Origin: a virus
Lineage: Duplodnaviria > Caudoviricetes
Length of the DNA stretch: 42,811 bases
Direction: 5' to 3' (one strand)
IMG/VR virus record: IMGVR_UViG_3300012943_000042
Location: 1-42,811 of that record
The position numbers were made by a program, and so were the translations under genes. The notes under the pieces are model-generated. The model was given only the letters and a program-made list of their open reading frames with translations, had not been told where the DNA came from and did no database searches. Shown here one piece after another: positions 315-40,356 of this stretch (position 1 is its first letter; every line of letters starts with the position of its first letter).

Positions 315-749
315 ATGGCCGATAACGTCATCGATGATTTTCTGTTCCACTTCGGCGTAAAGGGTATGAAGTGGGGCGTACGTAGGGATTCTTCTGGTCG
401 TGCACAGCTTGGAGCAGCTCCTCGTCGAGCTCACGCAAAGCGTGTGGCGGCAGTAAAGAAGGCGACTACCAAGAAGCCAATCGCAGAAGAACACCAGAAG
501 CTCCTCAAGACTAAGAAGGCCCGAGCAAAGCACCTCTCAGATTCTGAGATCAAGGCAGCGATCGGTCGAATGAATCTTGAGCGTCAGTACAACCAGTTGA
601 ACCCTAACACAATAGGCAAGGGCTACAAGGTTGCAATCGCTGCACTGGCGGTTGGCACGACGATCAACTCCGCAGTCGCTTTCAGCAAGTCACCTGCGGG
701 TCAAGCGGTGATCGAGGGAGTAAAGAAGGCACTAGCTTCTAGGGGTTGA
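315..749 (+). CDS. Basic HxGVKGMKWGVRR-motif protein, putative internal head protein
   Basis: N-terminal DDFLFHFGVKGMKWGVRR; Lys/Arg rich; located in head module. Confidence 0.75.
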   Translation: MADNVIDDFLFHFGVKGMKWGVRRDSSGRAQLGAAPRRAHAKRVAAVKKATTKKPIAEEHQKLLKTKKARAKHLSDSEIKAAIGRMNLERQYNQLNPNTIGKGYKVAIAALAVGTTINSAVAFSKSPAGQAVIEGVKKALASRG

Positions 750-762
750 AAGGAGGTTATCA

Positions 763-2936: not shown

Positions 2937-2966
2937 TGGATCGACAAACCTGAAAGGAGGTGAGAC

Positions 2967-4280
2967 ATGGCAGAGTCCATCGGAGGAAGGCTGAAGCACG
3001 CCTGGGACGTATTCCGTGGTCAAGAGAGTTTCACAGCATCACGTGACTACGGTCCATCGACTAGCCGACGTCCGGACAGGCCGTACAGGACTATGGCCAA
3101 CGAGAAGTCGATCATCTCTTCTATCTATACTCGTCTTAGCGTCGACGCGTCATCAATCGATATTCGTCACGTGCGAGTTGATGAGAATGGTCAGTATCTG
3201 GACACGATTCCAAGTGGACTGAATGACTGTCTTCAAGTCGAGGCTAACATCGACCAAGCGTCAGCTCACTTTGTTCGAGATGTAGTCAGCTCAATGCTAA
3301 GCGTTGGCTGTATCGCAGTCGTGGCAGTAGATACAACTGTCAATCCTGTGACCACTGGTGGCTACGATGTCCGCTCCTTGCGAGTTGGTCGAATCGTTCA
3401 GTGGTACCCGCGTCACGTGCGAGTGGATCTCTACAATGAGAAGACAGGTCTTCGCCAGGAGGTAACTCTCTTGAAGCGGAACGTCGCTATCATAGAGAAT
3501 CCCTTCTACGATGTGATGAATGAGTCCAACTCGACTCTTCAACGACTACTTAGGAAGCTTAGTCTTCTGGACGTAGTCGATGAGAAGCAGAGTATGGGTA
3601 AACTCGACCTGATCCTTCAGCTACCCTACGTTGTCAAGTCTGCTGCTCGCAAAGAGCAGGCTAGGGAACGCCGACAGGCACTCATGGATCAGATGGAGGG
3701 TTCGACGCTCGGCATTGGCTACGTCGATGCTACCGAGAAGATCACACAGCTCAACCGACCGGTTGAAAGCAACCTGCTGACGCAGATCCAGTACTTGCAA
3801 GAGCTTCTGTTCTCGCAGCTGGGTCTCACGCAGGAGATCCTGAACGGTAGTGCTGATGAAGAGACGATGTTGAACTACTATGGTCGCACGATCGAACCGC
3901 TTCTTACGGCGGTCACGCAGGCCATGAAGCGAACTTTCATCACGAAGACTGCGCGCACGCAGGGACAGTCGATCGAATTCTATCGTGATCCGTTCAAGCT
4001 TGTTCCAGTGTCTGAGGTCGCTGAGATCGCAGATAAGTTCACGCGTAACGAGATCATGTCGCCCAACGAGGTTCGCGGTGCTGTAGGCATGAAGCCAAGG
4101 CCTGAGGCTTCAGCGAACGAACTCGCCAACAGGAACATGCCTCAGTCGGGTAGCGACTCACCCACAGGAGGGGCTGAGGGGCAAGGACCAGAAGACAGCG
4201 TTCTCGCTGATCTGGAAGCACAAATTGATAGTATCCTGGCTAACCCAGGGGGTGACGTGCAAGATGACAACAGTAGTTGA
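2967..4280 (+). CDS. Portal protein
   Basis: 437 aa after terL; C-terminal IMSPNEVRGAVGMKP typical of HK97-type portals; SD GAAAGGAGGT. Confidence 0.88.
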   Translation: MAESIGGRLKHAWDVFRGQESFTASRDYGPSTSRRPDRPYRTMANEKSIISSIYTRLSVDASSIDIRHVRVDENGQYLDTIPSGLNDCLQVEANIDQASAHFVRDVVSSMLSVGCIAVVAVDTTVNPVTTGGYDVRSLRVGRIVQWYPRHVRVDLYNEKTGLRQEVTLLKRNVAIIENPFYDVMNESNSTLQRLLRKLSLLDVVDEKQSMGKLDLILQLPYVVKSAARKEQARERRQALMDQMEGSTLGIGYVDATEKITQLNRPVESNLLTQIQYLQELLFSQLGLTQEILNGSADEETMLNYYGRTIEPLLTAVTQAMKRTFITKTARTQGQSIEFYRDPFKLVPVSEVAEIADKFTRNEIMSPNEVRGAVGMKPRPEASANELANRNMPQSGSDSPTGGAEGQGPEDSVLADLEAQIDSILANPGGDVQDDNSS

Positions 4281-5004
4281 CAACTTTCTTGCGCACTACG
4301 CCTCTGAGTACTACGATCCAGTCAAGGCTAAGGCCTACTACGAGCGCACCAAGAAGCTCAAAGGTAGGAAGAAGGCGAATGCCCTTACTAGTAAGGCGCA
4401 ATCAGATGCCTGGGCCGTAACGAAGGATTCTATCAGCACTGCTCGAACCAATGACCTGAACAAGGCGTCAGAGGAAACCCAGCAGGCACTCGACACAGCC
4501 CGAGCGAACGCGGAGGCAGCGTCAGAGAGAATCCAGGCGAAACTGACGGACTTCCTTCAACAGGTGATGTCCGACACTCCGATCCCGGGGAATGCCAGTC
4601 CGCGACTACGAGCCTTCCTACAGGCCCAGCGGACCAGACGTGCCCAAGGAGCCGTCAAGGAGGCGAATGCCGATCTCCAGAAGGTAGGCAGCCAACTCAA
4701 GGCGGCGATTGCCACAGCAAGACAGTCCTATGCGACTAACAAGCAGGCAATCAAGGACAAGTATGACCAAGCCACTGAGACGGAGTATGAGAACATTCGT
4801 ACAAAGATCCCAGGGGCATCGGCCGCAAAGTCTAAGACCACTCCAAAGAAGAAGACCTCGTCTAAGGAACGGACTACCACTAGGAAGACAGTTCTCAGAC
4901 CAAAGCGAAAGCCAAAAATTAAGGCTCAGACATCGGCTCCTCCTCCAAAGAAGCCAGTGGCTAAGTCTTCTCAAAGAGGTTCATCTTCCAAGAGAGCGGT
5001 TTAG
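4264..5004 (+). CDS. Helical protein with Lys-rich tail, putative internal head protein
   Basis: Likely start ATG 4264 after GGGGGTGA; begins MTTVVDNFLAHYAS; lies between portal and capsid. Confidence 0.65.
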   Translation: MTTVVDNFLAHYASEYYDPVKAKAYYERTKKLKGRKKANALTSKAQSDAWAVTKDSISTARTNDLNKASEETQQALDTARANAEAASERIQAKLTDFLQQVMSDTPIPGNASPRLRAFLQAQRTRRAQGAVKEANADLQKVGSQLKAAIATARQSYATNKQAIKDKYDQATETEYENIRTKIPGASAAKSKTTPKKKTSSKERTTTRKTVLRPKRKPKIKAQTSAPPPKKPVAKSSQRGSSSKRAV

Positions 5005-5019
5005 AAAGGATACTTCAAA

Positions 5020-7038
5020 ATGGGAGCAGACTTTTCAGGTTGGGCTACCAAAGCGGGATTGAAGTGCTCCGACGGTCGGACAATCATGCCGGATGCGTTC
5101 TCGCATCAGGACAAGATGAAGGTTCCGCTCGTTTGGCAACATCAGCACAACGATCCAATCCAGATTCTCGGGCACGCAGTACTCGAGAAGAGGAAGGATG
5201 GTGTTTACACCTACGGGTTCTTCAACGACACCCCTTCCGGACAACAGGCCAAAGCGCTCGTCGAGCACGGCGACGTTGAGGCCCTCTCCATCTATGCAAA
5301 CAAGCTCGTAGAGAAGAACAAGCTAGTCCACAATGGAAGCATTAAGGAAGTTAGCATCGTTCTTTCGGGGGCCAACCCCGGAGCATTCATCGATAACGTG
5401 TACATGCAGCACGGCGATGACTACGAGGTTGTTGAGGGTGAGGCTATCATCTACACCGGCCTCAGTCTTGAGCATGAAGATCAGTCAACCGACGGGTCGC
5501 AAGACAACCAAGGAGGAACAATGGCCGACGGAGACGGCGAGAAGACCATCAAGGAAGTCTACGACTCCTTCGATGAAGAGCAGAAGGCCGTCGTTCACTA
5601 TCTGATCGGAGAGGCCCTTAGCCAGTCCGACGAGGACGGTGACGACAACATCAAGCACGGCGACGACGATGAGGACGACGGTGACGACGACTCTGACGAC
5701 GGCGACGAGAACGAGGATGACTCGTTGAACCACAACCAGGAAGGAACTCAAATGGGCGGAAACGTCTTTGACCAGTCCCAGCAGAGCGGTGATGAGGGCG
5801 CGACCCTTACTCACGCACAGCTCGAAACCATCATGACCGACGCCAAGCTCATGGGCTCTTACAAGAAGGCCTTCCTGATGCACGCCGGTGAGTATGGTAT
5901 CACCAACATCGATCTCCTCTTCCCCGACGCCAAGTCGATTCAGGACTCCCCCGAGTTCGTCAAGCGTCGCACTGAGTGGGTCGACATCATTCTAGGCGGC
6001 ACCAAGCACGTTCCGTGGTCTCGCATTCGGTCGATGTTCGCGGACATCACCGAGGACGACGCGCGCGCGAAGGGTTACATCAAGGGCAACATGAAGAAGG
6101 AGGAGTTCTTCTCCCTCTCCAAGCGCACCACGACGCCCCAGACCGTCTACAAGAAGCAGAAGCTCGACCGCGATGACATCATCGACATCACGGACCTCGA
6201 CGTTGTTGCCTGGCTCAAGGCTGAGATGCGTCTCATGCTTGAGGAGGAAATCGCACGCGCGATCCTCATTGGTGACGGCCGTGAGGTGGACGACGACAAC
6301 AAGATCAAGGACCCTGCCAGCAACGCTGACGGTTCGGGTATCCGCTCGATCGCCCATGATCACGAGTTCTATGCGGTTCCCGTCACGATCCCGACGAACG
6401 CCAGCCCTGCTGACGCAACCGAGGCGATCATCCGCTCGATGGACGAGTACCACGGCTCTGGCGCCCCGACGGCGTTCATGGCTCGCTCGTTCCTCACCGA
6501 CCTGCTTCTCCAGAAGGACAAGATGGGTCGTCGTCTGTACCGCAACCGCGAGGAGCTGGCTTCCGAGCTCGGCGTCGCGCGAGTTGTTGACGTTGAAATC
6601 CTGAACGAGGAGCTGACGGTCCTTGCGATCATCCTCAACCTCCAGGACTACAGCGTTGGTACCGACCGCGGTGGCGAGACCACGTTCTTCGACGACTTCG
6701 ACATCGACTACAACCAGTACAAGTACCTCTACGAGACCCGCCTCTCAGGTGGACTCACGAAGTGGAAGGCTGCGATTGTGGTCAAGCGTACCGCCGGTAC
6801 CCTGGCAACGCCCACGGTTCCGTCGTTCAACGCTGGCACCGGAGTCGTCACGATCCCGACCGTTACCGGCGTGGTCTACAAGAACCAGGAGACGGGCGTA
6901 ACCCTGTCCGCTGGCGCTCAGGCCGCAATCGACAAGGACGAGGAGCTCTCGGTCGTCGCGGTGCCCGCATCGGGCTACTACTTCCCGTACAACTTCGACG
7001 CTGACTGGACCTTCATCGGTACCACTGAGCTCGACTAG
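5020..7038 (+). CDS. Prohead protease - scaffold - major capsid protein fusion with C-terminal Ig-like domain
   Basis: N-terminal HK97-type protease pattern (VPLVWQH, LSI, EVSIVLSGANPGA), acidic linker, capsid-like domain (EEEIARAILIGDG), strongly C/G-ending codons in the 3' part. Confidence 0.88.
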   Translation: MGADFSGWATKAGLKCSDGRTIMPDAFSHQDKMKVPLVWQHQHNDPIQILGHAVLEKRKDGVYTYGFFNDTPSGQQAKALVEHGDVEALSIYANKLVEKNKLVHNGSIKEVSIVLSGANPGAFIDNVYMQHGDDYEVVEGEAIIYTGLSLEHEDQSTDGSQDNQGGTMADGDGEKTIKEVYDSFDEEQKAVVHYLIGEALSQSDEDGDDNIKHGDDDEDDGDDDSDDGDENEDDSLNHNQEGTQMGGNVFDQSQQSGDEGATLTHAQLETIMTDAKLMGSYKKAFLMHAGEYGITNIDLLFPDAKSIQDSPEFVKRRTEWVDIILGGTKHVPWSRIRSMFADITEDDARAKGYIKGNMKKEEFFSLSKRTTTPQTVYKKQKLDRDDIIDITDLDVVAWLKAEMRLMLEEEIARAILIGDGREVDDDNKIKDPASNADGSGIRSIAHDHEFYAVPVTIPTNASPADATEAIIRSMDEYHGSGAPTAFMARSFLTDLLLQKDKMGRRLYRNREELASELGVARVVDVEILNEELTVLAIILNLQDYSVGTDRGGETTFFDDFDIDYNQYKYLYETRLSGGLTKWKAAIVVKRTAGTLATPTVPSFNAGTGVVTIPTVTGVVYKNQETGVTLSAGAQAAIDKDEELSVVAVPASGYYFPYNFDADWTFIGTTELD

Positions 7039-7049
7039 TCGGTGGTAGT

Positions 7050-7682: not shown

Positions 7683-8546
7683 ATGAGCAAGATTCTTTGG
7701 GACCAGCTCGAGGACCGGAAGTACGAAACGGGCGTAGACCACGGCGTTCTGTACAAGCAGGACGATGCTGGTGCCTATGACATCGGTGTTGCCTGGAACG
7801 GACTTGTGTCTGTCACTGAGAGCCCTGAGGGCGCTGAGGCGACTGCACAGTACGCAGACAACATGAAGTACCTCAACCTCATCTCTGCTGAGGACTACAA
7901 GGCTACGGTGGAGGCATTCACCTATCCTGATGAGTTCGAGGAGTGCAACGGTGTTGCGTCTCCTGTTCCCGGCGTTCACGTCGGTCAGCAGAATCGTCGG
8001 GGCTTCGGTCTCGTTTGGCGGACGAAGGTGGGCAACGCGGTCAATCCTGACCTCGGCTACAAGATCCACATCGTCTGGGGAGCCACCGCGGCGCCCTCTG
8101 AGAAGGCCTACGAGACGGTCAACGACTCGCCTGAGGCAATGACGCTGAGCTGGGAGCTGTCGACCACACCGGTCGCCATCGACCTCGAAGGCTTCCGCCC
8201 CACGGCATCGATCACCATCGACTCCACGACGGTCGACCCGATCGCCCTCGCGGCACTCGAGACCGAGCTGTTCGGATCCGCGGGTACCGACCCGCATCTG
8301 CCCAGCCCGACCGAGGTCGTTGGGTTCTTCAGCGCTGGCACCCTCACCGGTGTCTCGCCTGTTGCCCCGACGCAGGACGAGGACGATATCACGATCCCGA
8401 CCGTCACCGGCGTGGTCTACAAGATCGCTGGAGAGACGGTTACCGGAGTAGTCACCATCACCGACAACACCATTGTGAAGGCTGTGCCGGCTTCCGGCTA
8501 CTACTTCACGACGCCGTTCGTCGACGACTGGCTGTTCACGGTCTAA
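7683..8546 (+). CDS. Major tail (tube) protein with C-terminal Ig-like domain
   Basis: ATG 7683 after SD AGGAG; YETGVDHGVLY...AWNGLVSVTESP...YADNMKY; strongly biased codons. Confidence 0.85.
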   Translation: MSKILWDQLEDRKYETGVDHGVLYKQDDAGAYDIGVAWNGLVSVTESPEGAEATAQYADNMKYLNLISAEDYKATVEAFTYPDEFEECNGVASPVPGVHVGQQNRRGFGLVWRTKVGNAVNPDLGYKIHIVWGATAAPSEKAYETVNDSPEAMTLSWELSTTPVAIDLEGFRPTASITIDSTTVDPIALAALETELFGSAGTDPHLPSPTEVVGFFSAGTLTGVSPVAPTQDEDDITIPTVTGVVYKIAGETVTGVVTITDNTIVKAVPASGYYFTTPFVDDWLFTV

Positions 8547-8567
8547 AGATAGGAAGGAGGCCAGGGA

Positions 8568-9110
8568 ATGCTCCACATCGATGTGTTCTCACCAGACAAA
8601 TTCAATAACTCTACTCAAGAGTTTATAAGTGACAAGCTGGGAACTCTGGTGCTGGAGCATTCTCTGGTCTCTCTATCAAAATGGGAGCAAATCTTTGAGA
8701 AGCCGTTCATCAATAATGAGCGTAAGACTGACAAAGAGACTCTCGAGTACATCAAATGCATGAATGTAGGCACTGATACTCCTCCGGAGGTCTTTGAGAA
8801 TCTCTCTCAGAGTAACATCAATGACATTCAGAACTACATCAATGCGAAGATGACAGCTACTTGGTTCACAGAGGAGCAAGGTCATCAACAATCAAGGGAA
8901 ATCATCACTGCTGAGCTCATCTATTACTGGATGATCTCTCTAGGTATCCCTTTTGAGTGTCAGGAATGGCATCTTAACCGTCTTCTAACTCTTATACAGG
9001 TTTGCAACCGCAAGAATGCACCTAAGAAGAAGATGAGCCACGCTGAAGCTGCCGCCAAGATGTCTGAGATGAACAGACTGCGCAGAGAACAGCTGAAAAC
9101 CAATGGATAG
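8568..9110 (+). CDS. Tail assembly chaperone-like protein
   Basis: 180 aa after major tail gene; LEHSLVSLSKWE...WHLNRLLTLI; SD AAGGAGG. Confidence 0.55.
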   Translation: MLHIDVFSPDKFNNSTQEFISDKLGTLVLEHSLVSLSKWEQIFEKPFINNERKTDKETLEYIKCMNVGTDTPPEVFENLSQSNINDIQNYINAKMTATWFTEEQGHQQSREIITAELIYYWMISLGIPFECQEWHLNRLLTLIQVCNRKNAPKKKMSHAEAAAKMSEMNRLRREQLKTNG

Positions 9111-9122
9111 AAAGGAGGACTG

Positions 9123-9758
9123 ATGTCTAAGCTTGTTTGGGGCCTACTCGAAGAGCGTTTCTTTGAAACCGGTGTCGATCGTGGTGTTCTCTATGTCGGA
9201 GATGAAATTGGTGTGCCCTGGAACGGTCTAGTTTCAGTCAAGGAGTCCCCAACCGGTGGCGATCCTCAGCCTTTCTATCTCGATGGTGTCAAATACCTCA
9301 ATCTTTCGGAGTCTGAGGAGTTCGAGGCCTCTATACAGGCCTTTGGATACCCGGCTTCCTTCGCTCAGTGCCTTGGAGACCTCCCCATTCACAACGGGCT
9401 GTTCATAACCCAGCAACCTAAGAAGACTTTCAACTTCACATACAGGTCACGACTGGGTAACGCAATCCTAGGAGCTGATTACTCCTACAAAATCCATATG
9501 GTGTGGAATGCACTGGCAGGCCCAGCGGATAAGGAGAACAATACAATTGCAGACTCTCCGAATCCTTTTGTTTTCAACTGGCCAGTCTCTACACTTGCTC
9601 CGCTTACACCGGGGTACCACCCTAGCGCCCATATGGTGGTTGACGCGTCACTGACCCCAAGCGATATTCTGGAAGAACTCGAGAATTTGCTCTATGGTTC
9701 GGATGAAGGCGATGCCCACTTCCCTACTCAGAGTGAATTGATCGAGTTGTTCTCATGA
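9123..9758 (+). CDS. Tail-tube paralog 2
   Basis: MSKLVW...FETGVDRGVLY...PWNGLVSVKESP aligns by eye with the major tail protein. Confidence 0.75.
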   Translation: MSKLVWGLLEERFFETGVDRGVLYVGDEIGVPWNGLVSVKESPTGGDPQPFYLDGVKYLNLSESEEFEASIQAFGYPASFAQCLGDLPIHNGLFITQQPKKTFNFTYRSRLGNAILGADYSYKIHMVWNALAGPADKENNTIADSPNPFVFNWPVSTLAPLTPGYHPSAHMVVDASLTPSDILEELENLLYGSDEGDAHFPTQSELIELFS

Positions 9759-10471
9759 GTAGACTAGTTTGGGGAGAGCTCAAAGAGCGAAAGACACTAC
9801 AGGGCGCCGATAGAGGAGTATTTTACCCAAAAAATGGCCTAGGAGTCGCTTGGAATGGTCTTTTGGCTGTAAAAGAGGGGTCAGATGACGCTGTTCGCGT
9901 AGAGACCCATCTAGATGGCGTTAAGATGACAAATCAAGAGACTACTGGGGCCTTTTCTGCGGTTGTTAAATGCTTCACTTATCCAGAGGGTCTAGATAAG
10001 GGCTCACAGTTTGATTTTTCCTACCGTACTTTTTATGGTGGGAAGCCTCAGATACATCTCGTTTACAACGCGAGAGCAGTTCCTTCTGAAAAGAGTTATC
10101 CCTCCATCAATGATTCGCCACAACCAATAGATTTCGAGTTTAACGTCTCAACGAAGCCTCTCATATTTCAAGATAAGTACCGTTTGTCTCATTTGATTGT
10201 TGATGCAAACATATCTTATGAGTGGGTGGTTAAAGGTGTTGAGGATATTCTTTATGGAGAAGAAGGCGATCCTAGGATGCCAACTCCAGAAGAGGTATTT
10301 GAGATCTACCAAGAAGGCGCCATACTCAAAGTTCATAATAATGGTGATGGGACGTATACCATAACAGGTCCGGAGTCAGCTGTTAAATGGCTAGATGATG
10401 ATACAGTTCAACTTAAGTGGCCTTCGGTGATCTGGTTGAATGAGGAGACATTCCAAATTAGTTCGCTTTAG
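9755..10471 (+). CDS. Tail-tube paralog 3 with C-terminal extension
   Basis: MSRLVW...GADRGVFY...AWNGL...IHLVYNARAVPSEKSY matches the major tail protein pattern. Confidence 0.7.
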   Translation: MSRLVWGELKERKTLQGADRGVFYPKNGLGVAWNGLLAVKEGSDDAVRVETHLDGVKMTNQETTGAFSAVVKCFTYPEGLDKGSQFDFSYRTFYGGKPQIHLVYNARAVPSEKSYPSINDSPQPIDFEFNVSTKPLIFQDKYRLSHLIVDANISYEWVVKGVEDILYGEEGDPRMPTPEEVFEIYQEGAILKVHNNGDGTYTITGPESAVKWLDDDTVQLKWPSVIWLNEETFQISSL

Positions 10472-20031: not shown

Positions 20032-20224
20032 CGTCCTTCGCTTGCTGGTGACCATTGTACTGCCGGCAATTGCTGCGCTGTACACGGGTCTTGCCGCTCT
20101 CTGGAACTGGGGTTATATTCCAGAGATCGTGGGAACTATCTCTCTGATCACTGTCTTCTTGGCGACCGTTCTCGGCATCAGCCGTGTTGGTTACAACAAG
20201 ACACAAGGACCAGGCTCGCAGTAA
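19985..20224 (+). CDS. Holin (Dp-1-like)
   Basis: 79 aa, two hydrophobic helices, DKTYNVLR...LPAIAALY...LW.W; SD AAGGAGG. Confidence 0.78.
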   Translation: MNDETNPWHLTDKTYNVLRLLVTIVLPAIAALYTGLAALWNWGYIPEIVGTISLITVFLATVLGISRVGYNKTQGPGSQ

Positions 20225-20242
20225 AAACACACGCTATAGTGA
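20215..20242 (+). promoter_or_regulatory. Repeated phage promoter-like motif, copy 1
   Basis: CTCGCA-GTAAAAACACACGC-TATAGTGA (TCGCA-N14-TATART). Confidence 0.7.
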
Positions 20243-20264
20243 GAACTCTTGAAAGGAGATATTC

Positions 20265-20549
20265 GTGTTAAAGAAGACACGCACCGAACCCACTGAGCTC
20301 GACAAGACCATTAAGAAGGTCCATGACGAGATCAATAAGGTTAGTGCTGATTCTGATGAGTTCGCTAAGATGTCTGCTCAGCTAGACCGTCTTTACAAGA
20401 TGAAGACTTATAAGAAGGAATCATCTGTGAAGCCGGATACGCTGATCAACGCCGGAGTGAATCTCGCCGGGATCGTGCTGATCCTAGGTTTCGAAAAGGC
20501 CCATGTGCTCTCTTCGAAAGCTCTAGGGTTCGTGCGGAAGTCTCACTAA
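20265..20549 (+). CDS. Hypothetical protein with C-terminal hydrophobic segment
   Basis: GTG start, SD GAAAGGAG, 94 aa. Confidence 0.7.
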   Translation: MLKKTRTEPTELDKTIKKVHDEINKVSADSDEFAKMSAQLDRLYKMKTYKKESSVKPDTLINAGVNLAGIVLILGFEKAHVLSSKALGFVRKSH

Positions 20550-20573
20550 CGTGTGAACTTCTACAACTGATCT

Positions 20574-20640
20574 AGACTGGCACCGTGTGTAAGGACGACA
20601 AATCCTGCATGCGGTGTCAGTCTTTTTCGGTTTATTTTTT
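20574..20640 (+). terminator. Intrinsic terminator, long GU-containing hairpin
   Basis: AGACTGGCACCGTGTGTAAGGA pairs with TCCTGCATGCGGTGTCAGTCT, followed by T-rich tracts. Confidence 0.75.
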
Positions 20641-20683
20641 TCACTTCCAAAAATTCCCGGGGGGAGATTTTCCACAAATCAAA

Positions 20684-20710
20684 TCGCATTTTCTGCACGG
20701 CCTATAGTGA
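20684..20710 (+). promoter_or_regulatory. Promoter-like motif, copy 2
   Basis: TCGCA-TTTTCTGCACGGCC-TATAGTGA. Confidence 0.6.
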
Positions 20711-20739
20711 GAGACTACTCTCGCCTACGAAAGGATAAA

Positions 20740-20961
20740 ATGATGTATGCAATGAAGCTCACGACTGAGCTCTATGAAATCGCACAGGTCCTTGACCCCT
20801 CCCTCGCTGAAGCTCCCGTCGAGCGCCTCGTGAACTCTCACCTGGTGATCGACAAGGAGAACAACGTGGTGATGGTGGTCAACTCCGAGCGGTTCACTGA
20901 GCTCTTCGAGATCCTCGCTGCCGACTTCGCCATTCCGGTCATGAAGGTAAAAAAAAAGTAG
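20740..20961 (+). CDS. Cassette micro-gene, 73 aa hypothetical
   Basis: SD GAAAGGA, ATGATG start at 20740. Confidence 0.7.
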   Translation: MMYAMKLTTELYEIAQVLDPSLAEAPVERLVNSHLVIDKENNVVMVVNSERFTELFEILAADFAIPVMKVKKK

Positions 20962-20968
20962 CCTTAAG

Positions 20969-21000
20969 TTGAAGCCCCCTAAAAAGGGCTTCTTCTTTTG
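20969..21000 (+). terminator. Cassette-end hairpin type A
   Basis: GAAGCCC-CCTAAAAA-GGGCTTC then TTCTTTTG; 32 bp identical to 23965-23996. Confidence 0.65.
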
Positions 21001-21001
21001 C

Positions 21002-21029
21002 CTCGCAGAAATTACACACGCTATAATGA
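21002..21029 (+). promoter_or_regulatory. Promoter-like motif, copy 3
   Basis: CTCGCA-GAAATTACACACGC-TATAATGA. Confidence 0.75.
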
Positions 21030-21055
21030 CACCCCACACCAATTGAAAGGAAACT

Positions 21056-21199
21056 ATGATGAAGGTTTACACCATTGGAAGCGATGAGCACCTCGCCCTC
21101 ATCGGTCGACGCATTGTTGTGGTTGGAGTTGCCATTGTAGCCTACGCGGTTATCAAGGGCACTCTCAACCTCAAGAAGAACTCGACCGGTGCGGCGTAA
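21056..21199 (+). CDS. Cassette micro-gene, 47 aa single-pass membrane peptide (not in ORF track)
   Basis: SD GAAAGGA; MMKVYTIGSDEHLALIGRRIVVVGVAIVAYAVIKGTLNLKKNSTGAA. Confidence 0.7.
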   Translation: MMKVYTIGSDEHLALIGRRIVVVGVAIVAYAVIKGTLNLKKNSTGAA

Positions 21200-21240
21200 A
21201 CTCGCCCAATCAAGCCCAACAAGTTATCAATTGCAGTGCC

Positions 21241-21275
21241 GAGTTGGCCCCCTAAAAAGGGCCTTCTCTTTTTCT
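21241..21275 (+). terminator. Cassette-end hairpin type B
   Basis: GGCCC-CCTAAAAA-GGGCC then TTCTCTTTTT; 35 bp identical to 22901-22935. Confidence 0.62.
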
Positions 21276-21290
21276 CTTGGAAGGAGTACA

Positions 21291-21869
21291 ATGAAGCCTC
21301 TACGCATTGGTAAGCGCAACAAGCCAGTAGTTCTGCCCGATCTGAAAGCATATCCTGAAGGATCGGTGATCCACGTGATGGACGATGGTAGCGTTATTCC
21401 ACAGATTTCTCTCGATGGGGGATCTTTTGATGAGACCGTTCAAAACATGGAGTCTGTTGAACCTGTCATCCTTGACGACCCGGTGAACCACCCATCCCAT
21501 TACACCGATGGAAACATCGAAGTGTCGGACTTCATCGCCGACAAGAACTTCAACTTCTTCAGGGGCAACGCGATCAAGTATATTTCTCGTGCCGGCAAGA
21601 AGGATCCTCACAAGGAGCAAGAAGATCTCGAGAAGGCCATCTGGTACCTTCAGAGGGAGATCCATCGCATGGGGGGCTATGACGTTCGTCCGAACCCTCT
21701 GGAGAACGTCACCATCATGGTGCCCCACTGGGCCGACCAGCAGCATTTCCTCCAGCAGTTCGAAGATGCGTTCTTCACCGTCTGGCACGAGGGAATGGAT
21801 GCACAGGCGCTCGCTGACAACATTTCCAAGGAGATGAAGAACGAGAGTCTCATGAAGCGAGAAGGATAA
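21291..21869 (+). CDS. DUF3310-domain protein (T7 gp1.7 nucleotide-kinase-like family)
   Basis: ATG 21291 after GAAGGAG; DPVNHPSHY...GNAIKYISRAGKK...EDLEKAIWYL. Confidence 0.75.
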   Translation: MKPLRIGKRNKPVVLPDLKAYPEGSVIHVMDDGSVIPQISLDGGSFDETVQNMESVEPVILDDPVNHPSHYTDGNIEVSDFIADKNFNFFRGNAIKYISRAGKKDPHKEQEDLEKAIWYLQREIHRMGGYDVRPNPLENVTIMVPHWADQQHFLQQFEDAFFTVWHEGMDAQALADNISKEMKNESLMKREG

Positions 21870-21870
21870 C

Positions 21871-22650
21871 ATGAAGGATATTTCAAGCCTTGTTAAGGGT
21901 GCTGGGAAGGTTCTCAAGGAGAACTCACCGGCTCTCTTGACGGCTGGAGCGATCACAGGTGTAGTTTCGACTGCATATTTGGTCGCTAAGGCAGCGTACG
22001 ATGTAGGAAAAGATGTGAATGCCGGACATTATGAACCTCTTCTCGAAGGTGGGGAACCAGAGGTTTATGATGCCAAGGCGCTAGTTCAGACATACTGGAC
22101 AGCCTTCATTCCTGCTGCAATCACGGGAGCGGCTACCATCGCTCTCATAGTAGGGTCGAACCGTGTAAGTACGCGACGGAATGCGGCTCTACTTACTGCC
22201 TTGTCTCTTACAGAGCGTGCCTTCGACGAATACAAATACAAGGTCGTTGAGCAGCTTGGTAAGGGCAAGGAGCAGAAGGTGCGTGCTTCAATCGCTCAGG
22301 ACCACGTGGACGACAACCCCGCGTCGAACGCTCAGGTGATCATCACAGGGAACGGTGACGTTCTTATGTACGATGACTTCACTGGGCGATATTTCAACAG
22401 TGGTGTTGAGAAGATCCGCAAGGTTCAGAACGACCTCAATGCACGCCTCATGATCGAGGGGTGTGTCTCTGTGAACGAGTTCTACGAGGCTGTGGGGCTT
22501 CCTAGGCTTCGTCATGGAGACGATATTGGGTGGAATCTGTCTAACATGCTCAACGTCGAGTTCCATGGTGTTATATCTGAGGATGGACAACCATGTATCG
22601 CAGTTGAGTTCTTGAAGCAGCCTACCCAGCAGTACTGGAAGTACAGCTAA
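21871..22650 (+). CDS. Conserved phage protein (DUF6353-like), paralog 1
   Basis: ENSPALLTAGAITGVVSTA...GRYF...LNARL...VSVNEFY; similar to 25133..26062. Confidence 0.7.
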   Translation: MKDISSLVKGAGKVLKENSPALLTAGAITGVVSTAYLVAKAAYDVGKDVNAGHYEPLLEGGEPEVYDAKALVQTYWTAFIPAAITGAATIALIVGSNRVSTRRNAALLTALSLTERAFDEYKYKVVEQLGKGKEQKVRASIAQDHVDDNPASNAQVIITGNGDVLMYDDFTGRYFNSGVEKIRKVQNDLNARLMIEGCVSVNEFYEAVGLPRLRHGDDIGWNLSNMLNVEFHGVISEDGQPCIAVEFLKQPTQQYWKYS

Positions 22651-22651
22651 A

Positions 22652-22679
22652 CTCGCATAAATTACACACACTATAGTGA
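22652..22679 (+). promoter_or_regulatory. Promoter-like motif, copy 4
   Basis: CTCGCA-TAAATTACACACAC-TATAGTGA. Confidence 0.75.
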
Positions 22680-22705
22680 CAGAAGTCACTACTATAAAAG
22701 GAGAA

Positions 22706-22876
22706 ATGATGGACACCACTGTCGACGTTACCCCCACCAAGAAGTTCGTTTCGATCAAGAACCCGGCCTTCCTGGCCAGCGTTGCCGCAGGAGCAATCCT
22801 CGGCGCCGTTGTCCTGAAGAAGCTCGGAGTCTTCGAAAAGGCTTCCGAGGTGGTTGAGACCGTCACCGAGTCCTAA
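22706..22876 (+). CDS. Cassette micro-gene, 56 aa membrane peptide
   Basis: SD AAAGGAG, ATGATG at 22706; hydrophobic AFLASVAAGAILGAVVL followed by KK. Confidence 0.7.
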   Translation: MMDTTVDVTPTKKFVSIKNPAFLASVAAGAILGAVVLKKLGVFEKASEVVETVTES

Positions 22877-22900
22877 CCACTCAAGTACAACTTCCCCATA

Positions 22901-22935
22901 GAGTTGGCCCCCTAAAAAGGGCCTTCTCTTTTTCT
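22901..22935 (+). terminator. Cassette-end hairpin type B
   Basis: Identical to 21241-21275. Confidence 0.62.
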
Positions 22936-22947
22936 TTAAGGAGTATT

Positions 22948-23589
22948 ATGCTTAAGCTTCCGATCACTTACACCGATTTCAACGGTGTCGAGGTTACGGA
23001 GACGTTCTTCTTCAATCTCTCTACCGCTGAGGTGGCTGAGATGGAGCTCAAGATGGCCGGGGGTCTCACGGAGAACCTCCAGCGAATCGGTGAGAGTGGT
23101 GACCCTAACCTCATCGTGAACACCTTCAAGGAGATTCTTCTTTCCTCATTTGGTGTTCGCTCGGAGGATGGTCGTCTGTTCAGGAAGCGTCCGGAGTTCA
23201 CGGCCGACTTTGTCGACAGCGGAGCCTACGAGGTTCTCTTCGTCAGGCTCATCACGGACTCTGAGTACGCCGCGGAATTCGTAAACGGCATCATGCCTAA
23301 GAGCGAGGACCCCAACGCTCAGCATCTGATCAAGGCTGCACAGGACCGTCGTAACGAAGATCGTGCGATCCCTCAGGCAATCGCTCAGCAGGATCCAGTG
23401 GTTACGGACGAGTCAAAGCCCGACCCTGTCGAGTACGACTACTTCCCGAGCTACGAGCAGTTGCACGAGCACCTCACTGGTCTCGACATCCAGCACAACT
23501 TCATAGACGGGCAGTTCTTCAAGAATCTCCCAAAGGAACAGCAGAGGGCGTTGATTGACGACCTCAAGGGGAAGGTTCCGAGGGGGTAA
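22948..23589 (+). CDS. Conserved phage protein, N-terminus resembles tail assembly chaperone family
   Basis: ITYTDFNG...FFFNLS.AE...GVRSEDGRLF.K...AYEVLF pattern; SD AAGGAG. Confidence 0.55.
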   Translation: MLKLPITYTDFNGVEVTETFFFNLSTAEVAEMELKMAGGLTENLQRIGESGDPNLIVNTFKEILLSSFGVRSEDGRLFRKRPEFTADFVDSGAYEVLFVRLITDSEYAAEFVNGIMPKSEDPNAQHLIKAAQDRRNEDRAIPQAIAQQDPVVTDESKPDPVEYDYFPSYEQLHEHLTGLDIQHNFIDGQFFKNLPKEQQRALIDDLKGKVPRG

Positions 23590-23692
23590 GAGGGTAGCTG
23601 AGGTACTCTCTTGCGAGAAAATGGGGAGTGTCCCCTCATGACATGACCAGAGGCTACTGGTAATCTTAAACGACCAAATTAGGCGCCCATAT

Positions 23693-23720
23693 CTCGCAAG
23701 AATTACACGTCATATAATGA
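23693..23720 (+). promoter_or_regulatory. Promoter-like motif, copy 5
   Basis: CTCGCA-AGAATTACACGTCA-TATAATGA. Confidence 0.75.
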
Positions 23721-31260: not shown

Positions 31261-31262
31261 AG

Positions 31263-33893: not shown

Positions 33894-33954
33894 CTTGTAG
33901 CCCCGGGCATGGCTTTAAACTGCCCATCTATTCATATTCTTTTGAAAGGAGAAG

Positions 33955-35021: not shown

Positions 35022-35059
35022 GCGTTTCTTCGAAAACATAACAAAGGATTGGTCTTAAC

Positions 35060-35263: not shown

Positions 35264-36501
35264 TACTAGAGCCAGACCAAATCAAAGCCATACACCAGAT
35301 GCACAATGGTTGCGTAGTTCGTGGTGGAGTCGGTGTTGGCAAGACGATCATATCCCTAGCGTATTATCTAACAAAGGAGTGTAAGGATGGTGGGACCATA
35401 CTCGATAACGGACGAGTACAATTCCGTGACGAACGAGGTGACCCGAAAGATCTTATCATCATCACCACTGCCAAGAAACGAGACAATCTCGATTGGGTTA
35501 AGGAGGCTGCTCTCTTTGGAGTTGGAGGAGATAGAGCTTTCTCAGAACTCAACGTTCGCCTTCAAGTCGATTCTTGGAACAACATTGACAACTACGCAGC
35601 AACTAAGGGCGCTTTCTTTATCTTTGATGAGCAGAGACTCGTGGGATCGGGGGCGTGGGTCAAGAGTTTTTACAAGATTGCCAAAGCGAATGGATGGGTT
35701 CTACTTTCAGCAACACCTGCCGATACGTGGATGGACTACATCCCAGTATTTGTGGCAAACGGTTTTTTCAAAAACAAGACGGCGTTCACTGACCAGCATG
35801 TCATGTGGAAGCCTTTTTCTCGATATCCGCAAGTTCGAGGATTCAGAGGTGAAGCCAGACTACGTGAGCTTGAACGAGCGCTACTCGTTGATGTTGAGTA
35901 CGTTAGGACTACTACCAGAGTAGTTGACTACATCGACCATCCATGGGATCAGGAGAAGTTCAATAAGGTGTGGAAAGATCGTTGGAATGTCTTTAAGGAT
36001 GAGCCAATACAAACCATATCTGAGTTGTTCTACGTCCTTAGAAAAGTTGTCAACTCTCACAAGTCACGTCTAGAGTCCGTCCGTACACTGCTAGAAGAAC
36101 ACCCACGTCTGATTATATTCTACAACTTCAAGTATGAGGTAGAGATTCTTAAACAGCTCGCCGATAGTATTGAGGTTAAACAGTGGAATGGTCAGGTACA
36201 TGATGAGCTTCCTGATGGAGATCGTTGGGTATATTTAGTCCAGTATACTGCTGGGAGTGAAGGTTGGAACTGTGTAAGTACGGATTCGATGGTATTCTAT
36301 TCGTTGACTTATAGTTATCGAGCATTTGAACAAAGCCAAGGACGAATTGACCGTCGAAATACACCGTTTAAGGAGCTTCACTACTACGTTTTGAAGTCTG
36401 GATCGTTCATTGATAAGGCGATTCTGAAGTCTTTGAGGGCCAAGAAGAACTTCAACGCGCGTAAGTTCGTGGCCAAAACTGAAATTTCTGCCCACTTTTG
36501 A
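35254..36501 (+). CDS. SF2 (SNF2-like) DNA helicase
   Basis: GVGVGKT, FDEQ, LSATP, SEGWN, QSQGRIDR motifs. Confidence 0.85.
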   Translation: MAVVLEPDQIKAIHQMHNGCVVRGGVGVGKTIISLAYYLTKECKDGGTILDNGRVQFRDERGDPKDLIIITTAKKRDNLDWVKEAALFGVGGDRAFSELNVRLQVDSWNNIDNYAATKGAFFIFDEQRLVGSGAWVKSFYKIAKANGWVLLSATPADTWMDYIPVFVANGFFKNKTAFTDQHVMWKPFSRYPQVRGFRGEARLRELERALLVDVEYVRTTTRVVDYIDHPWDQEKFNKVWKDRWNVFKDEPIQTISELFYVLRKVVNSHKSRLESVRTLLEEHPRLIIFYNFKYEVEILKQLADSIEVKQWNGQVHDELPDGDRWVYLVQYTAGSEGWNCVSTDSMVFYSLTYSYRAFEQSQGRIDRRNTPFKELHYYVLKSGSFIDKAILKSLRAKKNFNARKFVAKTEISAHF

Positions 36502-36773
36502 AAAATTTTTGTGCACATAAGTGTCATGAATCCGAGACGCTGTGGCCAAAAAAGTGGGCAATGGCCATTTTTGAAATTTCAGTTTTGGCCACGAAAATCA
36601 TAGAGTTTGATATAGTTTGATGTTTTAGGTATGCCGGAATGTCCGATATTTCCTTATTTTAGACCCCTCTGTGGCCAAAACTGAAAAAAATACAAGAAAA
36701 ACTTTATTTTAAGAAAAACAAGGGTTTTCAAAAAGTTTACGAATCATACAAAAAAAGTGGGCTTTTGGCCACG
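36466..36773. repeat. AT-rich iteron/inverted-repeat region, candidate replication origin
   Basis: GTGGCCAAAA x5 in both orientations, AAAAGTGGGC x3, perfect 23-bp inverted repeat 36466-36488/36573-36595. Confidence 0.65.
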
Positions 36774-36797
36774 ACCCTGAATTTTCTCTCTTTGTGC

Positions 36798-36822
36798 ACG
36801 CGGGAAATACACGTGTTATAAT
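36798..36822 (+). promoter_or_regulatory. Promoter-like motif, variant copy 6
   Basis: ACGCG-GGAAATACACGTGT-TATAAT; same N14 spacing and ACAC core. Confidence 0.6.
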
Positions 36823-36876
36823 AGAAGGAGTAGGATATGATGATAGAAACATGCACTACTATTTTTGTGAGCCATC

Positions 36877-37170: not shown

Positions 37171-37702
37171 GGGACAACACGCTCTCCTCAGTGCAAGCAA
37201 GTATCACTGGATCCGCTATGATGATGAGAAGTTCGATCGTACTTACAGGACTGCACTAGCTGCATCACGTGGTACACAACTTCATGAACTAGCTGCTCAG
37301 CTCATTCGTCTTAAGGTGAAGCTGGGTAGGTCTCGCACAACTTTGAACATGTATGTGAATGATGCGATTGGCTACCGCCTTACACCAGAGGTAATCCTCT
37401 TCTATTCATACAACGCGTTCGGTACAGCAGACGCAGTCGGATTCAAGAACAACAAACTTCGTATTCATGATCTTAAGACTGGAGAGTCTAAGACGTCGAT
37501 GGATCAACTGATGATCTACTCGGCTTTCTTTTGTCTTGAGTATGAGTTTGACCCTCGTCAAATCGAGATCGAGCTTCGAATTTATCAGCATGATGACTTT
37601 GAGGTATTGATCCCTGACCCCGATTTCATTTTTGAGCTCATGCAGAAGATCAAATTCTATGACAACAGGATCGACGCTCTTAGACTGGAGGTAGAGTCAT
37701 GA
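37142..37702 (+). CDS. Cas4/RecB-like PD-(D/E)xK exonuclease (DUF2800-like)
   Basis: HALLSAS...RGTQLH...FGTADA...IHDLKTG...QLMIY. Confidence 0.75.
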   Translation: MRFNDHSKLEGQHALLSASKYHWIRYDDEKFDRTYRTALAASRGTQLHELAAQLIRLKVKLGRSRTTLNMYVNDAIGYRLTPEVILFYSYNAFGTADAVGFKNNKLRIHDLKTGESKTSMDQLMIYSAFFCLEYEFDPRQIEIELRIYQHDDFEVLIPDPDFIFELMQKIKFYDNRIDALRLEVES

Positions 37703-40356
37703 TAGACGACGAGCTCCTCCACTACGGTACTAAGCGACACTCGGGTCGATATCCTTGGGGTAGTGGTGGTCACTCGCAACAAAGAGACTGGGATTTCCTA
37801 ACATCTGTTAAGGATCTACGAGACAAAGGTCTTTCTGAGAAAGAGATAGCCACAGGTATGGGTATTTCAGTTCGACAACTGAGAGCCAAGGTTACGCTAT
37901 CAAACAATGAAGTTCGTAAAGCTGATGCCATGCAAGCTTTGAAGCTTAAGGCTACAGGTATGTCGAACACTGCAATTGGTAAGGAGATGGGTGTTGGAGA
38001 GTCTCAGGTTCGAGCTCTTTTGAATCCCCATATTATCGAGCGAAACAGCATTGCTCAGAAGACAGCGGATGTTCTGAAGAGTTACGTCAACAAAGATCAG
38101 TATCTCGACATTGGTAGTGGCACTGAGGCTCACCTAGGTATTTCTCAGGAGAAGCTTCGTGCTGCTGTTTCTCTTCTACAAGAAGAAGGCTACAAGGTTC
38201 ACTACATCAAGAACCCACAGATTGGAACAGGCAAGGATACTTCTATGAAGATTCTTGGTGATCCTGATTCAACTTTCTCTGATGTGAACCGTGGTCGAGA
38301 GAAGATTGCTACAGTAGCCAAGTATTCTGAAGATGGTGGGCGTTCCTTTAGAGGAATTGAGCCGCCTCAGCACATCAATTCAAGTAGACTTCTTGTGAGG
38401 TATGCGGAAGATGGTGGAGCTGATCGAGATGGTGTTATTGAGCTTCGTAGAGGAGTCGATGACATTTCTCTTGGTTCTTCGAGGTATGCTCAGGTTCGAA
38501 TCGGAGTGGATGGAACTCATTACCTTAAAGGTATGGCCATGTACAACGATAAGATCCCACCTGGCTACGACATGGTCTTCAACACAAACAAATCTAAGGG
38601 AGCCAACAAACTTGACGCTTTGAAGGCAATCAAGGATGATCCTGACCTACCTTTCGGTTCGATTGTTCGTCAGAAGCACTACTTGGACAAAGATGGTAAT
38701 GAGAAGCTTTCGGCTCTTAACATCGTCGGTTCTAAGGATACTTCTGGTGAAGAAGGTGGTTGGGGTCAGTGGAAGACTAATCTTTCTTCGCAGATGCTTT
38801 CAAAACAATCCCCCGCCCTTGCAAAACGGCAGTTGGATTTGGCGTTTGACACTAAGAAAGCTGAGTTTGATGAGATTAATTCTTTGACAAACCCCACTGT
38901 CAAGAAGTATCTTATGGAGAAGTTTGCTGATTCAGCAGACACATCCTCTGTACATCTTAAGGCAGCCGCTCTTCCTAGGACTACGAATAGTGTTCTTCTA
39001 CCTATCAACAGTCTTAAAGACAACGAGATCTTTGCACCACAGTACAACAATGGTGATAGGGTCGTTCTCATTCGCCACCCACATGGTGGAATCTTTGAGA
39101 TCCCAGAATTGGTAGTAAACAACCGCAACAAAGAAGCAAATAGCGTAATCCGTAATGCTAAAGATGCAGTTGGTATCAATTCTAAGGTAGCAAAGCGGCT
39201 TTCTGGTGCAGACTTCGATGGTGACACAGCTCTTGTGATTCTCAATCGTGAAGGACCGAACAAAGTTAAGACGTCGCAGCCTCTTGCTGCACTGAAAGAC
39301 TTCGATCCTCAGCAATACAAGGTTGCAGGCGACAAGCCAACAATCTCTGCAAAGACTAAGCAGCATGAAATGGGTAATGTTTCGAATCTAATTACGGACA
39401 TGACCATACAAGGTGCAAGCTTTGGTGAAGTTGCCATGGCAGTTAAGCATTCCATGGTAGTAATCGATGCAGAAAAACACAACCTTGATTGGAAGCAGTC
39501 TGCAAAAGACAACAACATCGCGGCTCTTAAGGAGAAGTACCAAGGTGGCGCCAACAAGGGTGCTGCTACACTAATCTCTAGAGCAAAGTCCAACATTCGT
39601 GTCGATGCTTTTAAGGAAAGACCCGCCTCTCAGGGAGGAAAGGTAGATCCAGCCACTGGCAAGAAGGTCTTTGTTAAGACTGGAGAAACCTATGTAGACA
39701 AGTCTGGTAAGGTAGTTCCTAAGAAGACCAAGTCTACGAAGATGGCTGAAGTTGATGATGCTTTTGAGCTTTCTAGTGGTACACCCATGGAAGCAGTGTA
39801 TGCTAACCATGCCAACAAACTTAAGGCATTGGCCAACACTGCTAGAAAGACGGCTCTTGAGACAGACAATTCTGTATCATCACCCTCTGCAAAGAAGGCC
39901 TATTCTAAAGAGGTGTCCTCTTTGAACGCCAAACTTAATCTGGCGCTTAAGAATGCACCACTTGAAAGAAAGGCCCAGCTCATTGCAAACGCCACCGTCT
40001 CCCAAAAGAGGCAAGCTAATCCTGACATGGACAAAGATGAGTTGAAGAAGGTCAAGAACCTTGCTCTATCTGAGGCTCGTTCTAGGGTAGGTGCTAAAAA
40101 GACCGACATAGTCATCTCTACCAGAGAGTGGGATGCTATACAGGCAGGTGCACTCAGTGCTAGTAAGATTAATAGCATACTGAAGAACACTGACCTAGAC
40201 CATGTAAAGAAGCTCGCTACACCAAGAGACAAGCCTGTAATGACTAAGGCTGTCACAGCTCGTGCCAAGATGCTGCTATCACAGGGCTATACACAGGCAG
40301 AGGTAGCTTCTGTACTAGGCATTCCAGCAAGCACCATCAACAGTGCACTAGATTGA
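37699..40356 (+). CDS. Putative single-chain two-barrel RNA polymerase with terminal HTH domains
   Basis: RHPH (39073) and GADFDGD (39205-39225); HTH-like segments near both termini; N-terminal LLHYG tag. Confidence 0.7.
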   Translation: MIDDELLHYGTKRHSGRYPWGSGGHSQQRDWDFLTSVKDLRDKGLSEKEIATGMGISVRQLRAKVTLSNNEVRKADAMQALKLKATGMSNTAIGKEMGVGESQVRALLNPHIIERNSIAQKTADVLKSYVNKDQYLDIGSGTEAHLGISQEKLRAAVSLLQEEGYKVHYIKNPQIGTGKDTSMKILGDPDSTFSDVNRGREKIATVAKYSEDGGRSFRGIEPPQHINSSRLLVRYAEDGGADRDGVIELRRGVDDISLGSSRYAQVRIGVDGTHYLKGMAMYNDKIPPGYDMVFNTNKSKGANKLDALKAIKDDPDLPFGSIVRQKHYLDKDGNEKLSALNIVGSKDTSGEEGGWGQWKTNLSSQMLSKQSPALAKRQLDLAFDTKKAEFDEINSLTNPTVKKYLMEKFADSADTSSVHLKAAALPRTTNSVLLPINSLKDNEIFAPQYNNGDRVVLIRHPHGGIFEIPELVVNNRNKEANSVIRNAKDAVGINSKVAKRLSGADFDGDTALVILNREGPNKVKTSQPLAALKDFDPQQYKVAGDKPTISAKTKQHEMGNVSNLITDMTIQGASFGEVAMAVKHSMVVIDAEKHNLDWKQSAKDNNIAALKEKYQGGANKGAATLISRAKSNIRVDAFKERPASQGGKVDPATGKKVFVKTGETYVDKSGKVVPKKTKSTKMAEVDDAFELSSGTPMEAVYANHANKLKALANTARKTALETDNSVSSPSAKKAYSKEVSSLNAKLNLALKNAPLERKAQLIANATVSQKRQANPDMDKDELKKVKNLALSEARSRVGAKKTDIVISTREWDAIQAGALSASKINSILKNTDLDHVKKLATPRDKPVMTKAVTARAKMLLSQGYTQAEVASVLGIPASTINSALD

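Follow-up and report, generated by a model that had tools for sequence, protein, structure and literature searches.

Hydrophobic-x-histidine motifs in a siphovirus of the 1706/Pepy6 group: candidate sites of a capsid-fused prohead protease and putative tags of head cargo, including an RNA polymerase

The DNA considered here is the IMG/VR virus record IMGVR_UViG_3300012943_000042, taken over its full length of 42,811 nucleotides (nt; hereafter the window). It is the record of a whole virus and has a 123-base terminal repeat. The gene set comprises a terminase, a portal protein, a protease-capsid fusion, tail genes, a primase/polymerase of 1253 amino acids (aa) and a protein of 885 aa. These genes place it with Lactococcus phage 1706 and Rhodococcus phage Pepy6, in a group that also takes in Arthrobacter, Gordonia, Streptomyces and Microbacterium phages; the genome is circular and that of a siphovirus of this group. 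Matches in GenBank number 246 records for the capsid gene and 250 for the 885-aa gene, with identities below 60% throughout. The group has been described, and the accessible text of that work points out a DxDGD polymerase motif in the 885-aa gene family (Koert et al., 10.1101/842583). The present analysis concerns a short motif, a hydrophobic residue followed by any residue and a histidine (Φ-x-H, where Φ stands for L, I, V, M or F at position -2 relative to His), that recurs in the linker between the protease and the capsid domains and close to the N-terminus of three small basic proteins and of the 885-aa protein (Table 1). An initial annotation of the window had named four such N-terminal tags, IDDFLFH-FG, IDDFLVH-HG, VDNFLAH-YA and IDDELLH-YG, and all of them are present in the open reading frames (ORFs) starting at 315, 2508, 4264 and 37699, respectively.

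Table 1. Positions of the features discussed in the text; a slash marks the predicted site.
Feature	Position	Strand	Remarks
Tagged basic protein 1, 144 aa	315..749	+	acidic leader, LFH12 (motif 330-350, IDDFLFH/FG), then F-GVKGMKWG; DUF7211
Tagged basic protein 2, 142 aa	2508..2936	+	LVH15 (motif 2532-2552, IDDFLVH/HG), then H-GVKGMKWG; DUF7211
Portal protein	2967..4280	+	N-terminal R-L-K-H/A-W, LKH 2991-2999, possible weaker site
Tagged basic protein 3, 246 aa, phrog_11413	4264..5004	+	LAH11 (motif 4276-4296, VDNFLAH/YA), then YASEY-YDPxKA..YY
Prohead serine protease domain (Peptidase_S78)	5020..5400	+	N-terminus of capsid precursor (ORF 5020-7038)
Acidic linker/scaffold	5401..5883	+	aa 128-288, mostly disordered in structure model
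Linker site MQH131	5404-5412	+	sequence motif
Linker site LEH152	5467-5475	+	sequence motif
Linker helix match VVH193	5590-5598	+	seventh Φ-x-H
Linker Gln variant LSQ/S	5617-5625	+	
Linker site IKH213	5650-5658	+	sequence motif
Linker site LNH238	5725-5733	+	sequence motif
Linker site LTH265	5806-5814	+	sequence motif
Linker site LMH288	5875-5883	+	sequence motif
Predicted mature major capsid protein	5884..7038	+	aa 289-672, 42.7 kDa, N-terminus AGEYGITNID
TCGCA-N14-TATA[AG]T, five copies	20216, 20684, 21003, 22653, 23694 (20216..23718)	+	promoter-like
Single-chain two-barrel RNA polymerase (structure model), 885 aa	37699..40356	+	LLH8 (motif 37702-37722, IDDELLH/YG), then Y-GTKRHSGRYPWG
SGADFDGD of polymerase	39202-39225	+	DxDGD motif

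The capsid protein is made as a protease-linker-capsid precursor whose linker is studded with Φ-x-H. Its N-terminal part matches the PF04586 profile above the cut-off, and the protease residues His41, Ser90 and Glu110 are invariant in 71 of 71 homologues. By the precedent of the HK97 enzyme, we take His41 and Ser90 to be the S78 catalytic pair. In the structure model, residues 131-173 and 206-256 are disordered and are flanked by an ordered protease and an ordered capsid domain, the predicted mature capsid protein adopting the HK97 fold followed by a C-terminal domain of beta-strands. A sequence search of the PDB with the precursor found no solved relative (single hit, E-value 0.21).

All seven His residues of the linker have a hydrophobic residue at -2, versus 56 of the 205 His in the other listed genes of the genome (p ~1e-4), and none of 300 linker shuffles reached seven Φ-x-H. 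The six linker motifs of the initial annotation are thus in place, but its count was incomplete, as it had left out VVH193. This seventh match is probably not a site, because the His is found in only 36 of 71 homologues; it also lies in a predicted helix. The bias extends to the homologous linkers, here 56 sequences with less than 80% identity drawn from the 71. His makes up 4.43% of their linkers versus 0.95% of their capsid domains, 344 of 407 linker His stand in Φ-x-H (background, 21%) and the median number of sites per linker is 6, versus 1.5 in shuffles; in a single linker, that of homologue L066, the enrichment is not significant. The first site, His131, directly follows the protease domain and is conserved in 70 of 71 homologues. 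At the other end, in the 71-row alignment, the distance from the last site to a conserved Gly of the capsid domain is 0 residues in 34 sequences, 4-5 in 31 and 14-27 in 6, the 0-spacing form requiring four changes on a quick tree, two of which are forced by strong branches. A motif that shifts in register yet stays at the border of the capsid domain looks, from these comparisons, like a cutting site. The same alignment contains Ala-x-His-Ser and Φ-x-Gln-Ser as apparent variants of the site. Within linkers, Gln shows no general enrichment (19% vs 21%); Gln before Ser alone does (24/38 vs 66/367).

Two of the tagged proteins, encoded by ORF 315 and ORF 2508, pass the cut-off of the PF23847 profile (DUF7211; 50.7 and 51.8 bits). 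About 45 of their N-terminal residues are alike, and they are paralogous. The initial annotation had described four otherwise different tagged proteins; with this paralogy, there are three unrelated tagged families. The DUF7211 profile matches neither the product of ORF 4264 nor the polymerase, and an atlas search with ORF 4264 named no family. The predicted mature part of the ORF 315 product has a net charge of +21, and net charges of +18 and +30 are found for ORF 2508 and ORF 4264. Four of the 52 genes have a loose [DE]x1-2LxH pattern within their first 20 residues, whereas its frequency elsewhere would predict 0.14; this figure flatters, the pattern having been picked after seeing the four tags. 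When tags were instead located through their downstream half only (G-x-x-G-M-K-W-G), Φ-x-H preceded it in 113 of 115 distinct cases. A second set of 217 tags, from a scan that admitted only a His, Gln, Lys, Arg, Asn or Ser codon at the place of the His, has His in 213 and Gln in 4. Lys or Arg was never found there with the exact G[VI]KGMKWG pattern, one of the underlying scans covering 4 of the 64 parts of the collection, and Glu at this position, the putative P1, is confined to unrelated phages. Within the family of ORF 4264, Φ-x-H stands a variable few residues ahead of YDPxKA in 13 of 14 listed contexts, a looseness like that of the last linker site. The leaders of the tags are acidic and vary in sequence and length; the invariant positions are the His and the residues that follow it.

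From one to eight tagged genes are found per locus. Pepy6 (L083, 14185-19935, gp15-21) has a run of seven between terminase and portal, three of which belong to phrog_7502, a family without assigned function, and it also has a 2H phosphoesterase with an internal tag. The bodies behind the tags fall into about 40 groups, and all 98 mature parts are net basic. A Pfam scan of 50 of these 98 bodies detected a 2H phosphoesterase in four and a GNAT domain in one. According to the accessible text of PMC9503650, head-linked 2H domains have been interpreted as injected counter-defence enzymes. The tag motif is also found deep inside polyproteins. The initial annotation had not noted the N-terminus of the portal protein, which reads Φ-x-H in 49 of 60 homologues; its context is basic, and the His is often replaced. 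This N-terminus may be trimmed too, or may simply form an amphipathic helix. Two further candidates were rejected as tags: MADDTVDH of ORF 40367 is found in only 6 of 60 homologues, and DPELIMH in the connector gene stands at about residue 27, within a conserved fold.

The fourth tagged protein, of 885 aa, is by its structure model a two-barrel single-chain RNA polymerase. The model (predicted local distance difference test score, pLDDT, 83; residues 1-25 disordered) matches the folds of QDE-1 (E 7e-10), P23-45 gp64 (1e-7) and gp96 (8e-4) at about 11-13% identity; a sequence search of the PDB found no solved relative. Across 39 polymerase sequences D505, D507, G508, D509, R459 and P461 are invariant (SGADFDGD and R-x-P), and helix-turn-helix matches lie close to both ends of the protein. 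The N-terminus reads Φ-x-H-x-G in 70 of 75 distinct polymerases, A-x-H in 3 and L-x-Q in 1, and the acidic leaders ahead of the site differ greatly in length. In GenBank records of the group, the polymerase is mostly labelled 'helix-turn-helix DNA-binding protein', 'hypothetical' or 'RNA-dependent RNA polymerase'.

Phage 1706 offers an external view of these genes, since 15 of its 76 genes are labelled structural, portal, capsid or tail in GenBank. A 2008 paper on 1706 reportedly identified 15 virion proteins with the help of LC-MS/MS, a number that fits this count. The 1706 polymerase, orf75 (DDSLQH/YGTKRH), carries the label 'structural protein', and orf7, also labelled structural, has five sites, two of them with the full peptide. 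An N-terminal acidic-[LI]-x-H is found in 4 of the 15 labelled genes vs 1 of the 61 others (p=0.005); among these four, orf12 is probably a chance match.

Candidate targets of the polymerase can also be pointed out. The five copies of TCGCA-N14-TATA[AG]T, where 0.08 are expected, stand to the right of the structural genes. The motif occurs 14 times in Pepy6 (38901-48780), four times in genome G001 and once in 1706; in a bacterial bin it stays at chance level. A variant, ACGCG...TATAATAG, lies near 36816-36845, upstream of the genes leading to the polymerase, and four copies of a hairpin resembling a terminator, GCCCCCTAAAAAGGG with a run of T behind it, are interspersed among the promoter-like motifs (20969, 21242, 22902 and 23965). 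Because its spacing is unlike that of a host -35/-10 promoter, the motif may be the target of the polymerase. If the genes behind it are the first to be read, the polymerase must arrive with the DNA.

The peptide that follows the His is not restricted to the 1706/Pepy6 group. A scan of the whole collection for x-GVKGMKWG in which the codon at the place of the His begins with a base other than C returned only 23 stretches. Five are in-family, one of them cut off, and four tags lack the His; the remaining stretches show no match to the terminase, portal or capsid of the 1706/Pepy6 group. Once repeat loci of the same phages were dropped, 11 loci with 19 distinct outside tags were left, of which 16 have Glu at this place, two Asp and one Met, mostly as L-R-E or L-Q-E. 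Outside the family, the peptide is fused to portals and a head protease, both of them parts of the head, and to a topoisomerase IB, a kinase-like protein and an ADP-ribosyltransferase. In uncultured phages (L338, L342, L347, L348, L350, L351, L352 and L354), L-x-E/x-GVKGMKWG is carried by portals, by a head protease, by topoisomerase IB and by a protein resembling PI3/4 kinases. In two DUF2213-type phages (L344 and L346), a portal-NUDIX fusion and ADP-ribosyltransferases have x-x-D ahead of GVKGMKWG or GGPGSGN. The capsid protein of contig G004 has L-R-E at 28-30 and 39-41, just ahead of a Pfam match that begins at 45, and contig G009 has the same arrangement. Contig G008 is a weaker case, with a tag after Asp, a neighbouring DUF2213 gene and R-F-D at 34-36 of the capsid protein. 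From these Glu and Asp tags and the matching capsid motifs, the residue two before the glycine appears to follow the capsid motif of each family, the peptide behind it remaining constant. Five outside-family contigs, none of them complete, yielded no relative of the polymerase.

Cutting after Φ-x-H, as proposed in the initial annotation, is well supported by such comparisons, namely by the enrichment and register shift in the linker, by the intact His41/Ser90 and by the P1 switch to Glu or Asp with matching capsids. Its idea that the widespread HGVKGMKWG motif (DUF7211) is a site plus a mature N-terminus fits the same data, and the motif is conserved across relatives in linkers, DUF7211 tags and polymerase N-termini alike. 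Packaging of the polymerase draws support from the conservation of its tag and from the 'structural protein' label of the 1706 homologue. The suggestion that the leader acts as a T4-like loading signal is not supported in that form: the leader is of variable length and has only its acidity in common, the element shared between unrelated phages follows the His, and the motif is also found inside polyproteins. Either half of the tag may thus do the loading.

We therefore propose, with a probability of roughly 0.7, that Φ-x-H is the site of the capsid-fused prohead protease, and that the tagged proteins, the polymerase among them, would be built into the prohead, cut behind the His and leave the head along with the DNA. 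Very probably, the protease would cut after His, with Gln tolerated, so as to free itself, shred the linker and leave a capsid protein starting at Ala289, for which the predicted counterpart in 1706 is Ala328. It is likely too, though a shade less so, that the tagged proteins would co-assemble inside the prohead. Loading would probably occur through the acidic leader, which would mimic the linker and be caught by the protease domains lining the shell, one per capsid subunit. The chances seem evenly balanced that the cut would expose the conserved basic-aromatic N-terminus (x-GVKGMKWG; Y-GxxRxSGRYPWG in the polymerase) as a retention or ejection address. Finally, we lean towards the polymerase being a virion enzyme that would start transcription at the TCGCA-N14-TATA[AG]T promoters.

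Loading of the T4 type, DUF7211 (a family with no functional name) and the putative polymerase have each been described on their own. For loading in T4 the ten N-terminal residues are enough; they are removed, gp21 cutting at L/I-x-E (PMC9026906, accessible text). The available text on the T4 capsid-targeting sequence (IPI-III, Alt; PMC9026906) shows several likenesses: a short N-terminal leader ending in hydrophobic-x-P1, cargo that is small, basic and poorly conserved between phages but that includes an enzyme, and a scaffold with many copies of one motif, at which it is cut in T4 and would be cut here. The present system differs from T4 in that P1 would be His (or Gln) rather than Glu, that each capsid subunit is made with its own S78-type protease as a fusion, and that the half of the tag which is conserved comes behind the site and would stay on the mature protein, whereas the T4 leader is removed. 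Moreover, the motif here also occurs inside polyproteins, the cargo would include an RNA polymerase and the phage is a siphovirus. In SPN3US and phiKZ, as far as the accessible parts of PMC10052503 and PMC9026906 report, (A/S)-x-E is the site at which gp245 and gp175 process proteins of the head, the portal and those that are ejected. As proposed here, a single short motif is shared by capsid, portal and internal proteins, propeptides are cut several times and a polymerase counts among the head proteins. These phages are, however, large myoviruses whose polymerases have several subunits and whose sites have Glu, in contrast to the 43-kb genome, the single-chain enzyme and the His sites described here. 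The PF23847 entry gives no function, and its model spans both halves of the tag, the apparent site and the mature N-terminus. The putative polymerase of the BI/AM/AU/AW/CC/DJ/EL-1706-Oengus phages (PHROG 4291) is of the same family, with DxDGD and helix-turn-helix motifs at both ends; the accessible text proposes polymerase activity and mentions neither tag nor packaging (Koert et al., 10.1101/842583). QDE-1, P23-45 gp64, the tail-fused gp96 and the virion polymerase of crAss phage phi14:2 share the two-barrel single-chain class. The P23-45 virion enzyme is delivered as a fusion to the tape measure protein (PMC10770324, accessible text); the polymerase studied here would be peptide-tagged head cargo. 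Our literature search, made among openly accessible papers, found no account linking the motif, a His-site protease, a virion polymerase and a targeting sequence. It found no virion proteome for the 1706/Pepy6 group, and no His-directed head protease or head-packaged single-chain polymerase in a small siphovirus. The tag is not mentioned in the accessible text of PMC5759034, PMC5883640, PMC4155818, PMC13587820 and PMC9503650.

Several observations weigh against our proposal, and most of those that concern the polymerase would be accommodated if only the capsid and the small basic proteins were cut and packaged. The polymerase would then be a non-virion enzyme of middle or late genes, and its tag would serve late trimming or sequestration or be a passenger. 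Indeed, the start of the polymerase gene overlaps the stop of an exonuclease gene within the replication block. The best phage fold matches are P23-45 gp64, ahead of gp96, and P74 gp62; P23-45 possesses a distinct polymerase that is not part of the virion (PMC10770324, accessible text). The lack of a PF23847 match in the polymerase fits as well, and the TATAAT box within the candidate promoters could be used by the host enzyme. One of the 75 polymerases (L135) has no site, and a complete relative (G002) has no TCGCA-N14-TATA[AG]T. In 1706, orf62 and orf71 are labelled structural and have no tag, so that the 1706 list may hold contaminants, of which a DNA-binding polymerase could be one. We nevertheless regard a non-virion polymerase as unlikely, in view of the conservation of the tag in 70 of 75 polymerase N-termini despite very different leader lengths, of the label of orf75 and of the fixed 14-base spacer with TCGCA replacing the usual -35 box, alike in Rhodococcus and Lactococcus phages.

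Other points bear on the motif itself. The bare Φ-x-H also fits 233 of 371 His in protease domains, 83 of 199 His in capsid domains and 51 of 145 major-tail-like N-termini. Being so common in folded domains, it cannot by itself designate a site, and disorder and acidic context must decide which His are cut. The His is missing from four full-length in-family tags (L341, L356, L357 and one in L358). In L203 (IMGVR_UViG_3300033552_000096), all four tags read L-E-Q/A and the capsid protein keeps its L-x-H sites, so the co-variation of tag and capsid is not strict. As for the outside tags, the 19 represent only about four lineages, and a capsid protein was seen for only three outside contigs, a search having found none in four of five. 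An improbable explanation is that the motif is a binding signal, for the inner capsid wall, for portal docking or, through the His, for a metal, like the cargo-loading peptides of encapsulins, the cuts being made elsewhere. Acidic His-rich repeats would suit metal or surface binding, and the peptide after the His is far better conserved than the leader. Against a binding role stand the change of His to Gln in all tags of L203, the Glu or Asp that replaces His in other families in step with the capsid start motifs, and the exact placement of the sites on the flanks of the protease domain (His131) and of the capsid domain; in T4, moreover, the measured specificity of gp21 is L/I-x-E (PMC9026906, accessible text). 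The small proteins might also be structural or external components of the head or simply bind DNA, in which case DUF7211 would be a small motif that binds nucleic acids and would resemble the linker by convergence. This would agree with their strongly basic mature parts and with PHROG 35934, which names one family 'virion structural protein' without specifying a location, but is very improbable given the 1-8 tagged genes per locus, the variety of bodies, some of them enzymes, and a leader side that tracks the capsid motif of each phage family.

Other features of the window may be recorded here. The tape measure protein (12063-16553, 1496 aa) has only one His, and three paralogous major-tail-like proteins with similar N-termini are encoded at 7683-10471. 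The region 36466-36860 is AT-rich and non-coding and is a possible replication origin; it contains an inverted repeat whose 23-base arms pair perfectly (36466-36488 / 36573-36595), and the word TGGCCA recurs in it. At 41720-41854, between a lysin-like gene and ORF 41881, a 35-base inverted repeat with arms 65 bases apart possibly forms a structured RNA.

More tentatively, at somewhat less than even odds, DUF7211 could be a portable two-part cargo code, in which the site is retuned to the head protease of each family (His here, Glu or Asp elsewhere) and the conserved peptide serves as the ejection address. Siphoviruses of a large group living in soil, gut and mouth would thereby carry in their heads a single-chain two-barrel polymerase together with counter-defence enzymes that can be swapped, process them with a His-specific protease and start infection from their own TCGCA-N14-TATA[AG]T promoters. 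If our proposal is true, it would give a function to DUF7211, present on an estimated ~2,300 IMG/VR stretches, and a life-cycle logic to a phage group of about 250 GenBank records. The 20-residue loading and ejection tag would be a protein delivery tool for laboratory strains of Streptomyces, Gordonia, Arthrobacter or Lactococcus, as well as a marker by which injected counter-defence enzymes may be found.

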